Origin: a virus
Lineage: Duplodnaviria; Heunggongvirae; Uroviricota; Caudoviricetes
Virus record (IMG/VR): IMGVR_UViG_2850756110_000011
Reading direction: 5' to 3' (one strand)
DNA length: 38,644 nt
This document shows, piece after piece, positions 15,306 to 16,955 of the stretch (position 1 is its first letter; each line of letters starts with the position of its first letter). The notes under the pieces were generated by a model. That model made no database searches, was not told the origin of the DNA, and worked only from the letters and a program-made list of their open reading frames with translations. A program made the position numbers and the translations under genes.

Positions 15306-16955
15306 ATGTTAGTCAAGAAAAATAAAAATTATAGTTTATATTTTTTAATTACAAATAATCAACAGATATCTGATTCTGGTAATTATATAAAAATAGTCCC
15401 ATCAAGAAGCGATTGGAATGATTTTGGATATTTGAGTAGAGTCGAAATATCTATTTTTAATAAAAAAGAGTGTAAGGATATAATTTCACTGAATGGTTAT
15501 ATTGGTTTTTTGAATTCAGAGGAGGAACGAAATGGAAAAGCAGAACTGATAAGGCGAGTGAAAAAAAAGGAAGAATCTAATTTAAAGGATGAGGGGTTTA
15601 ATGATTATTTTGTCATGCTTCAGGATATGAATAATTATCGAAGACTAGTAAGATTTTTTGGGGTGAATGAATCCAAATATATATTAAATTTCATTAATGA
15701 TGTTGTTTCTAAGAAAAGTGACGCTAGTGCAGAGAATTTGAGGAAAAAAGCAATCTCTTCTGATATCTTTAATAAATCTTTCATTAGAGAGTCTGAGTCG
15801 TATTTTACTTTCAAAAATGCAGGAACAGTTCTTTCCGGTATTCAATATGAGGAGTTGGGTAATTTATCACAGCACATCAAGATTAGCTATTCGAATAAAG
15901 TTAATGAAGAAGATGTATCTTATGTTTTTAATTTTGATCACGAGCATGATTTACCAAAAAGAATTTCCATAATTATAGGCGAGAATGGTGTAGGAAAAAG
16001 CCAAACGCTTAGAGAAATCGCATTGGCTGCGATTAAAGGAAAGGATAATTTGGTGGCTGTAGTTGATTCTAACGGTGTGAGCATTGAAGAACGAATTCAA
16101 ATTAGTAGGCTCATTGCTTTTTCTCCAACAAATGAAAGTAAGTGTTCATTTCCAACCGATAAAAGAATAAAATCATTGATATGGTACAAAAGATTGACTT
16201 TAAATCGTGAATCAAAATCCAAATTAAACTTGAATGATTTAATAGTGCAACTAGCGAGGAGTAACGACGCTATCGGCTATAATCAAAGGTGGAATATATT
16301 TGTTGATGCACTGAGTGTTCTAAATAGTAACAACGATTTAGTAATCAAATGTGGCGGTGAAAATTCACCATTTGTTAAATTAAATGAGCTTAATTCTCGA
16401 GGCGAAGAATCTAGACTATCATTATATTCTGAAATTATTCTCTCTGGCGAGCCTTTGAGGCTTATTGAAAATAAATGTTACCCTTTGAGTAGTGGGGAAA
16501 TATCGTTTATTAAGTTTTGTGTACAAGTTTGTTTGTATATTGAGAATGGGACTCTTCTATTAATAGATGAGCCAGAAACACATCTCCATCCTTCATTTAT
16601 TAATAAATTTATGGCATTGCTTGATAATTTATTAGAAAAGACAGGCTCTTCAGCTATCATAGCAACGCATTCGGTTTATCTTGTTCGGGAGGTTTTTAAG
16701 GAGCAAGTGACAATACTCAGAAGACGAGATGATGGGGTAATTGTTAGCGAAAAACCGAGATTGAGTACTTTTGGGGCGAATATAGGAAATATCTCATATT
16801 TTGTTTTCGGTGAGAGTGAACCAACTCAAATTTTAAATAAAGTAAAAAACAATATAATTGCAAAGAATATGTCTTGGGATGATGTTGAATCTAAATATAG
16901 CGAGGACTTATCACTTAATGTATTAACTGCGTTGAGAAATGAAATGGGCAATTGA
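15306..16955 (+). CDS. ABC/AAA_21-type ATPase (549 aa) with a roughly 215-aa N-terminal domain of unknown function; candidate defence protein (PtuA-like)
   Basis: Walker A GENGVGKS, signature-like LSSGE, Walker B/D-loop LLLIDEPETHLHP, H-loop IIATHS; gene is strongly AT-rich. Confidence 0.8.
   Translation: MLVKKNKNYSLYFLITNNQQISDSGNYIKIVPSRSDWNDFGYLSRVEISIFNKKECKDIISLNGYIGFLNSEEERNGKAELIRRVKKKEESNLKDEGFNDYFVMLQDMNNYRRLVRFFGVNESKYILNFINDVVSKKSDASAENLRKKAISSDIFNKSFIRESESYFTFKNAGTVLSGIQYEELGNLSQHIKISYSNKVNEEDVSYVFNFDHEHDLPKRISIIIGENGVGKSQTLREIALAAIKGKDNLVAVVDSNGVSIEERIQISRLIAFSPTNESKCSFPTDKRIKSLIWYKRLTLNRESKSKLNLNDLIVQLARSNDAIGYNQRWNIFVDALSVLNSNNDLVIKCGGENSPFVKLNELNSRGEESRLSLYSEIILSGEPLRLIENKCYPLSSGEISFIKFCVQVCLYIENGTLLLIDEPETHLHPSFINKFMALLDNLLEKTGSSAIIATHSVYLVREVFKEQVTILRRRDDGVIVSEKPRLSTFGANIGNISYFVFGESEPTQILNKVKNNIIAKNMSWDDVESKYSEDLSLNVLTALRNEMGN

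Follow-up and report, generated by a model that had tools for sequence, protein, structure and literature searches.

What is the long region that precedes the Walker A motif of the ATPase encoded within IMG/VR record IMGVR_UViG_2850756110_000011, a 38,644-nt stretch of Caudoviricetes DNA (hereafter the window)? The gene forms a two-gene cassette with a downstream HNH nuclease gene. The original prediction, made from the sequence without database searches, placed a domain of ~215 residues in front of the cassette ATPase, described it as lysine- and asparagine-rich and free of recognizable motifs, and suggested that it might be a sensor or partner-binding module that set the system apart from canonical ones. 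We found that residues 1-189 are a genuine domain, predicted by structural modeling to fold independently, and that this domain is conserved across a large family that is already catalogued. The cassette is most likely a Septu-like two-gene anti-phage pair in which the N-terminal domain (N-domain) would form the input side and not a catalytic or HNH-docking element; we give this reading, which leans on analogy to characterized relatives, a probability of about 0.5.

The large region before Walker A is real. GENGVGKS occupies residues 225-232, Pfam AAA_21 begins at residue 221, and the start codon at 15306 is secure, because a Shine-Dalgarno-like sequence precedes it, the stop-to-stop frame opens just five codons 5' of the ATG, enterobacterial homologues share the N-terminus MLVKKN, and RefSeq places the start at the same codon in a copy that is 99.8% identical. 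The premise that Walker A lies near the N-terminus in canonical relatives also held, as it is found at about residue 30 in canonical PtuA. The extent of the additional module was overestimated in the original prediction. AlphaFold2 (AF2) predicted strands at residues 190-196, 203-209 and 220-225, the last of which enters the P-loop, and residues F208, F210, L216, P217 and R219 of this stretch were invariant in a 51-sequence alignment. Because residues 190-224 correspond to the ordinary lead-in of the ATP-binding cassette (ABC) fold, which takes ~29 residues in canonical PtuA, the extra module is limited to residues 1-189.

From residue ~195 onward, the ATPase is co-linear with the canonical 393-aa PtuA of the P2-hotspot Septu system (Rousset et al. 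2022, system #105), which has Walker A at residue 30, the ABC signature at 211 and ILIDEIELHLHP at 247. Walker A and Walker B are separated by 193 residues, versus 217 in the #105 protein, and Walker B is followed by 132 versus 147 residues up to the C-terminus. Since the motif spacings are similar to those of canonical PtuA except for the position of Walker A, the ATPase reads, at the sequence level, as a PtuA-like core of canonical size with 190-195 residues added in front. We also considered whether the N-domain substitutes for the coiled-coil insertion of PtuA. This was rejected as a general argument, since the #105 PtuA has a Walker A-to-Walker B spacing of 217 residues without an N-domain, compared to 193 here and 298 in retron Eco7 PtuA.

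Modeled alone, the N-domain was folded by AF2 with confidence (predicted local distance difference test score, pLDDT, 86.5; predicted template modeling score, pTM, 0.84); the corresponding values for the full-length ATPase were 79.9 and 0.77. The statement that the region lacks a recognizable motif was borne out by every search. Residues 1-215 matched zero Pfam families and gave only chance-level NCBIfam matches (E 0.09 and 0.63). A Pfam scan of 30 diverse N-domains likewise returned only chance-level matches, a hidden Markov model (HMM) of these 30 found nothing credible among PDB sequences, and a Foldseek search of the domain against BFVD gave nothing below E 0.1. We found no relative of the domain among solved structures in the PDB. 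The ~100 diverse sequences available would suffice to build a Pfam model, and there is none at present.

The lysine and asparagine richness is present in the window copy (K 9.8%, N 11.2%) but does not survive as a trait of the domain. In high-GC homologues the same region contained 1.8-2.7% K and 2.9-4.5% N. Because the cassette itself is low in GC and the high-GC homologues are not K/N-rich, the richness is a compositional artifact of low GC. A basic, nucleic-acid-binding domain was considered and rejected: the predicted isoelectric point (pI) of 9.1 in the window copy compares to a family median of 5.8, and the K/N richness tracks GC.

A word-indexed homology search returned 733 proteins. 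The best 120 of the 733 shared 43-100% identity with the ATPase and were nearly all 540-560 aa long, with Walker A at ~204-247 in the full-length homologues of 43-82% identity. With residues 1-215 as the query, phmmer found 153 matches among 1.84 billion cluster representatives. In every full-length match, the domain stood directly before a Walker A motif at ~197-250, with Walker B following ~190-200 residues on, and the short matches stopped at or before Walker A. A profile search of a 5.8-billion-protein set yielded no other architecture with the N-domain; all that it returned were copies of this ATPase that had been truncated or frameshifted. Because the phmmer and profile searches both found only this one arrangement, the N-domain is confined to this ATPase family. 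Within the family it is widespread, as an HMM of the domain detected it in six phyla (Proteobacteria, Campylobacterota, Bacteroidota, Firmicutes, Actinobacteria and Eremiobacterota).

Conservation within the N-region was concentrated in a few islands. In the 51-sequence alignment, P32, N38, D39, F40, G67, M104, L105, Y111, R112 and D132 were invariant, as were F159, R161, N171, G178, E182 and S188. D39, Y111 and R161 remained invariant in a divergent 30-sequence alignment (21-41% identity), in which N38, F40, G41, L127, D132, F155 and G178 were kept at no less than 90%. The islands comprise P32, W37-N-D-F-G41, F102..M104-L105, Y111-R112 and D132, followed by a last one, F155..F159-x-R161-x-S-E..N171..G178. 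Mean pairwise identity was 0.42 for the N-domain, close to that of the insert (0.43) and of the C-terminal tail (0.45), compared to 0.61 and 0.76 for the two ABC halves. The domain evolves at the rate of a peripheral module, yet retains the invariant polar residues N38, D39, Y111, R112, D132 and R161.

Some members of the family departed from this architecture. An AbiJ_NTD3 module stood in front of the N-domain in a metagenomic protein (P0185), in a Prevotella locus (L014, 4041-5957) and in a Flavobacteriales locus (L017, 4161-6146), DUF4062 took this place in two related proteins (P0212 and P0215), and one protein (P0229) carried an additional 160-aa extension without any match. In a Pseudotabrizicola metagenome-assembled genome (L007), the orthologous ATPase gene appeared to be split by an insert of ~2.4 kb between its N-terminal (1708-2537) and C-terminal (5001-5831) parts. 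Other copies ended at or shortly after Walker A, including those of Shigella boydii (P0268, 243 aa) and Bradyrhizobium (P0269, 234 aa) and two of 325-326 aa (P0273/P0274). The frameshifted and truncated copies suggest recurrent pseudogenization of the system.

The ATPase gene was tightly linked to its HNH partner. An HNH homologue lay directly 3' of the ATPase gene in every locus with downstream sequence, across six phyla (one further locus, L009, ends at a contig edge), so the co-occurrence of the N-domain with an HNH partner that the original prediction had proposed to check was upheld. In nine HNH orthologues, C93, C96, D105, H106, N122, C127, C129 and N130 were invariant, and the partner exceeds this catalytic core, with conserved N- and C-terminal regions. 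An alternative, earlier ATG of the HNH gene at 16939 would overlap the ATPase stop. Relatives without the domain also precede an HNH gene, as in locus L020, where Walker A lies at residue 32, and one of the PADLOC PDC-M01A models is only 388 aa long. Because such domain-less relatives adjoin an HNH gene as well, the N-domain is, judging from these gene arrangements, an addition to a pre-existing ATPase-HNH pair and not required for the pairing.

The core of the ATPase resembles PtuA in structure and in motifs. A Foldseek search against the PDB ranked the PtuA chains of retron type I-A and E. coli Septu highest; further ABC ATPases, GajA and OLD among them, came next. The LIDE.E.HLHP motif is near-identical in the ATPase and in canonical PtuA. 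In retron-Eco7 PtuA, E396 and H400/H402 lie at the dimer interface, and the substitutions E396A and H400A abolish defense (PMC12673091); their equivalents are found in the Walker B/H-x-H motif of the ATPase, LLIDEPETHLHP. AF2 predicted C-terminal helices at residues 508-519, 524-531 and 537-548.

Just ahead of these helices lies the invariant TFGAxxGxISYFVFGE (residues 488-503), one of the best-conserved stretches in the family. Yet residues 487-505, within window positions 16485-16810, form the only long AF2 segment of low confidence (pLDDT <50). This segment may be ordered only in an oligomer or against the HNH partner.

We propose that two ATPase protomers would dimerize head-to-head around nucleotide through Walker A, LSSGE, DEPETHLHP and the H-loop, and that their C-terminal three-helix extensions would clamp one HNH subunit, keeping the nuclease in check. 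A cue from phage infection would change the state of the ATPase, upon which the nuclease would be licensed, and the N-domain would either read this cue or control the state of assembly. Defense would be of an abortive or nuclease type and prophage-borne. The placing of the input at the N-terminus follows retron PtuA, whose 63-aa N-terminal domain or extension (residues 1-63) binds the regulator formed by reverse transcriptase (RT) and noncoding RNA (ncRNA), and which loses defense when this extension is deleted (PMC12673091; PMC12819146). Since retron PtuA gained its RT-ncRNA-binding extension there, the N-terminus of PtuA-type ATPases is an attachment site of input modules. The AbiJ_NTD3 and DUF4062 modules ahead of the N-domain in some members are consistent with an N-terminal input end, as are the peripheral-type evolutionary rate of the N-domain and its invariant polar residues. 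A role in defense is supported by context, namely the P2 gpA-gpQ hotspot, low GC and a distribution restricted to 3 of the 5,426 complete E. coli genomes.

Several observations weigh against this proposal. Similarity to Septu is remote. In hhalign, the ATPase aligned with the #105 PtuA over the Walker B-to-H-loop stretch alone (86% probability), and the HNH family aligned with the #105 PtuB over the HNH core alone (69%). Because the curated NCBIfam cut-offs for PtuA and PtuB were not reached (NF041760, 41 bits versus a cut-off of 500; the retron-HNH model TIGR02646, 13 bits versus 52), transfer of the mechanism from Septu is uncertain. Pfam, the PDB and BFVD offered no relative of the N-domain, by fold or by sequence, from which a ligand might be guessed, and AbiJ_NTD3 and DUF4062 could be the actual sensors in the members that carry them, with the N-domain serving only as an adaptor or scaffold. 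We found in the literature no functional study of the PDC-M01, 'Septu-like' or 'PtuA-like' family and no description of its N-domain, and the matching P2-hotspot system #155 is absent from the systems reported as tested in Rousset et al. 2022.

The N-domain could instead be purely structural, serving as an oligomerization or scaffold unit on which the stoichiometry of the ATPase assembly depends, with sensing located elsewhere, for example in the ATP level or the ATPase core. We consider this somewhat unlikely. The full-length pTM of 0.77 suggests that the domain is packed in a fixed position on the ATPase, and the PtuA of stand-alone Septu forms a self-assembled hexamer that is essential to regulation (PMC12065111; PMC12819146). 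The members with AbiJ_NTD3 or DUF4062 suggest that other modules can do the sensing, and the acidic-to-neutral character of the domain across the family gives no pointer to a nucleic-acid ligand. However, canonical short PtuA, with its similar Walker A-to-Walker B spacing of 217 compared to 193 here, assembles without such a domain, and the six invariant polar and charged positions noted above (N38 to R161) resemble a functional site more than an interface.

A more specific proposal is that the N-domain is an undescribed fold that directly binds a phage protein or small molecule and, through an invariant surface made of the WNDFG, YR, ND and R-x-SE motifs, loosens the grip of the ATPase on the HNH nuclease. 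This is rather unlikely. If it were true, the family would represent a distinct and widespread subtype of Septu in which trigger specificity resides in a dedicated front-end sensor, and AbiJ_NTD3 and DUF4062 would be alternative or additional sensors.

That the N-domain is the docking site of the HNH protein, in line with the partner-binding role suggested in the original prediction, is improbable. The strict co-occurrence of the N-domain with the HNH gene would fit such a role, as would the size of the HNH partner, whose conserved terminal regions lie outside the catalytic core. In the solved Septu and retron PtuAB structures, however, PtuB's C-terminal domain is sandwiched between two PtuA C-terminal extensions (PMC12819146; PMC12673091). 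Because PtuB is bound in this way and the ATPase retains a predicted three-helix C-terminal extension of its own, docking by the N-domain is not expected, and the domain-less relatives beside an HNH gene (L020 and the 388-aa PDC-M01A model) argue the same way.

By the published label of the system, "NLR-like", the protein would be a STAND NTPase that has an effector or sensor domain at its N-terminus and is paired with a nuclease. The label was based on HHpred ('AAA_21/AAA_15/AAA_25/NB-ARC | HNH_5'; Table S5B of Rousset et al. 2022, PMC9122126), and we also obtained weak Pfam NACHT and nSTAND matches of 15-17 bits. These matches fell below the gathering scores and covered only the P-loop (residues 214-262). 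The label is contradicted by the ABC signature LSSGE, the DEPE Walker B and the H-loop, and by structural matches that were best to ABC ATPases of the PtuA, OLD and GajA kind; a C-terminal repeat sensor is also missing. The STAND/NLR reading is effectively excluded, and we correct the label to ABC/PtuA-like ATPase.

Finally, although the internal Met104 and the AT-rich region make a spurious extension of the reading frame conceivable, a start codon further downstream or a fusion of two genes is effectively refuted, since in addition to the Shine-Dalgarno sequence, the RefSeq start and the limit on the frame, enterobacterial homologues are conserved as far as residue 1, ~100 full-length representatives have the domain, including those from high-GC genomes, and AF2 folds the region confidently.

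Table 1. Coordinates of the cassette and its surroundings in the window, with the basis of each assignment.
Feature	Position	Strand	Basis
DinI-like gene, upstream neighbor of the low-GC block	14708-15013		
GC-rich hairpin and T-run, upstream of the cassette and within the conserved P2 flank	15149..15172	+	read from sequence
Shine-Dalgarno-like GAGAGGG, five bases before the ATG	15294..15300	+	read from sequence
ATPase gene, 549 aa, PtuA-like ABC ATPase, best match PADLOC PDC-M01A	15306..16955	+	open reading frame list, Pfam, PADLOC
N-terminal domain, aa 1-189, five strands and six helices, family-specific	15306..15872	+	AF2 model, conservation
ABC lead-in strands, aa 190-224, ending in FxFDH..LPKR before the P-loop	15873..15977	+	secondary structure, alignment
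Walker A GENGVGKS, aa 225-232	15978..16001	+	read from sequence, alignment
ABC signature LSSGE, aa 394-398	16485..16499	+	L394, S395, S396, G397, E398 invariant
Walker B and H-x-H motif, LLIDEPETHLHP, aa 418-429	16557..16592	+	read from sequence
H-loop ATHS, aa 453-456	16662..16673	+	T454, H455, S456 invariant
C-terminal three-helix extension, aa 508-548, putative HNH docking site	16827..16949	+	AF2; role by PtuA analogy (PMC12819146)
gene of the HNH nuclease partner, 287 aa with the RefSeq start	16957..17820	+	PADLOC PDC-M01B E 1.2e-33, PHROG 18937, RefSeq
HNH/zinc-knuckle core, C93-x2-C96 ... D105-H106 ... N122 ... C127-x-C129-N130	17233..17346	+	nine orthologues

The window is a degraded P2-type prophage, and the cassette, a moron of low GC, lies between cos/DinI and the portal gene (Table 1). 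The block between the DinI-like gene and portal gene Q has a GC content of 0.30-0.34 compared to 0.52-0.58 in the flanks, and contains the two co-oriented genes. They occupy the gpA-gpQ diversity hotspot described by Rousset et al. 2022 (PMC9122126). The 99.8% identical copy is carried by E. coli UPEC-245U, where RefSeq names the products 'AAA family ATPase' and 'HNH endonuclease', in an intact P2-like prophage in which it is again flanked by a DinI-like gene and the portal gene. With five differences from this copy in 2,515 nt, the window cassette is intact. Bases 15100-15255, on its left flank, match more than 1,200 E. coli genomes. In other genomes the genes flanking the cassette were mixed: housekeeping genes occurred alongside an integrase, a DUF3732 protein and a UvrD-like helicase, which lends weak support to a defense-island context.

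The remainder of the prophage has decayed around the cassette. In portal gene Q (17928-18962, minus strand), the codon for K199 is replaced by an in-frame stop (AAG to TAG) at 18363-18365, as judged from the intact 343-aa portal in CP049845, to which the gene is otherwise 99% identical. Because the nonsense codon splits the gene into open reading frames of 199 and 133 aa, particle production by the prophage is probably disabled. Of the replication endonuclease gpA, nothing but the C-terminal 299 residues (506-804) is left, at 13528-14424 (wider region 11954-14427), directly after an IS66-family transposase gene (11954-13492). It follows that the P2 early region was lost or displaced, while the defense cassette is still intact. 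The left 12 kb of the window is a nest of insertion sequence (IS) elements. At 2458-13492 it holds two IS66-family transposases (4563-6155, and the one adjoining gpA), two IS110-family elements (6448-7575 on the minus strand, and 9651-10826) and one IS3/rve element (7777-8595), together with a Rha/Ash-type phage regulator at 2458-3282. Taken with the ATPase copies from Shigella that are truncated (P0268, P0121), this IS load suggests that the host is Shigella-like.

Neither the cassette nor its family is new as such, both having been catalogued before. Both PADLOC profiles of the candidate system PDC-M01 were matched by adjacent genes, and the cassette belongs to this candidate. The PDC-M01A model PDLC04242 matched the N-region alone with E 4.8e-6 and residues 27-539 with E 3.2e-55 (185 bits), and PDC-M01B matched residues 8-270 of the HNH protein with E 1.2e-33. 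The PtuA1 model PDLC00282 was co-linear over residues 32-535 (1e-31) but was outscored at 108 bits, and 10 of 10 diverse N-domain proteins matched PDLC04242 best. There is no structural difference between PDC-M01 and the cassette, and the PDC-M01 models cover the N-domain. PDC-M01 is an unpublished computational candidate whose calls overlap those of Septu (PMC11811056). In PHROGs, the ATPase including the N-domain falls into family 8066 and the HNH protein into 18937, both annotated as 'unknown function'. Rousset et al. 2022 (Table S5B) list an identical protein pair as P2-hotspot system #155, with 12 occurrences in E. coli P2-like prophages (PMC9122126); our ATPase differs at one residue from the part of the #155 ATPase shown. 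The locus is thus less unusual than the original prediction held, since the N-domain is part of the standard architecture of a large catalogued family (PDLC04242, PHROG 8066, Rousset #155). To a large extent, the region is a standard part of a known subfamily, as captured by PDC-M01A and PHROG 8066 and with the PtuA1 model co-linear, whereas the doubt raised about a start codon further downstream proved unfounded.

Among characterized systems, PARIS (AriA/AriB), Gabija (GajA), OLD, Menshen NsnB and the TIGR04435 ATPase share with the cassette an AAA_21/AAA_15 ABC head that regulates a nuclease (PMC12065111). Their matches were weaker and confined to the C-terminal half of the ATPase, and the characterized members do not have this N-domain. 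OLD, GajA and PARIS use a Toprim or DUF4435 nuclease, whereas the partner here is an HNH protein with no Toprim or DUF4435 match in Pfam, PADLOC or NCBIfam. The restriction system-associated ATPase TIGR04435 is co-linear and of similar length (568 aa), but scored 73.6 bits versus a cut-off of 300 and only over residues 392-506, with the same outcome in ten diverse family members.

Septu (PDB 8EE4/8EEA; Rousset #105) is closer. It too is a two-gene operon with the ABC ATPase gene first and the HNH gene second, and it shares the P2 hotspot niche and the CxxC..DH..N..CxCN core, as well as a C-terminal three-helix extension, which is predicted here. PtuA has the same set of motifs (Walker A, signature, Walker B with H-x-H, and H-loop), with ILIDEIELHLHP in place of LLIDEPETHLHP. 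The two differ in that Walker A lies at ~30 in Septu PtuA (93 in retron PtuA) compared to 225 here, after the 189-aa domain; sequence similarity is very remote, and the PADLOC score is higher for PDC-M01 than for PtuA. Relative to characterized Septu, the cassette is a variant with a large N-domain that has neither a Pfam model nor a detectable structural relative. The PtuA of retron type I-A (Ec78/Eco7) offers the nearest parallel to the added domain, being a PtuA-type ATPase with an acquired N-terminal extension; that extension, made up of three helices and two strands, spans 63 aa versus 190 aa here, with no detectable homology between the two. Unlike in the retron, the annotation from DinI to the portal gene includes neither a reverse transcriptase gene nor one for an ncRNA. 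How Septu-type ATPases sense infection is only partly understood, and in retron PtuA it is a short N-terminal extension that couples the ATPase to its regulator. A large N-domain without a known relative, shared across phyla, provides a separable handle on trigger recognition or assembly control in such systems.

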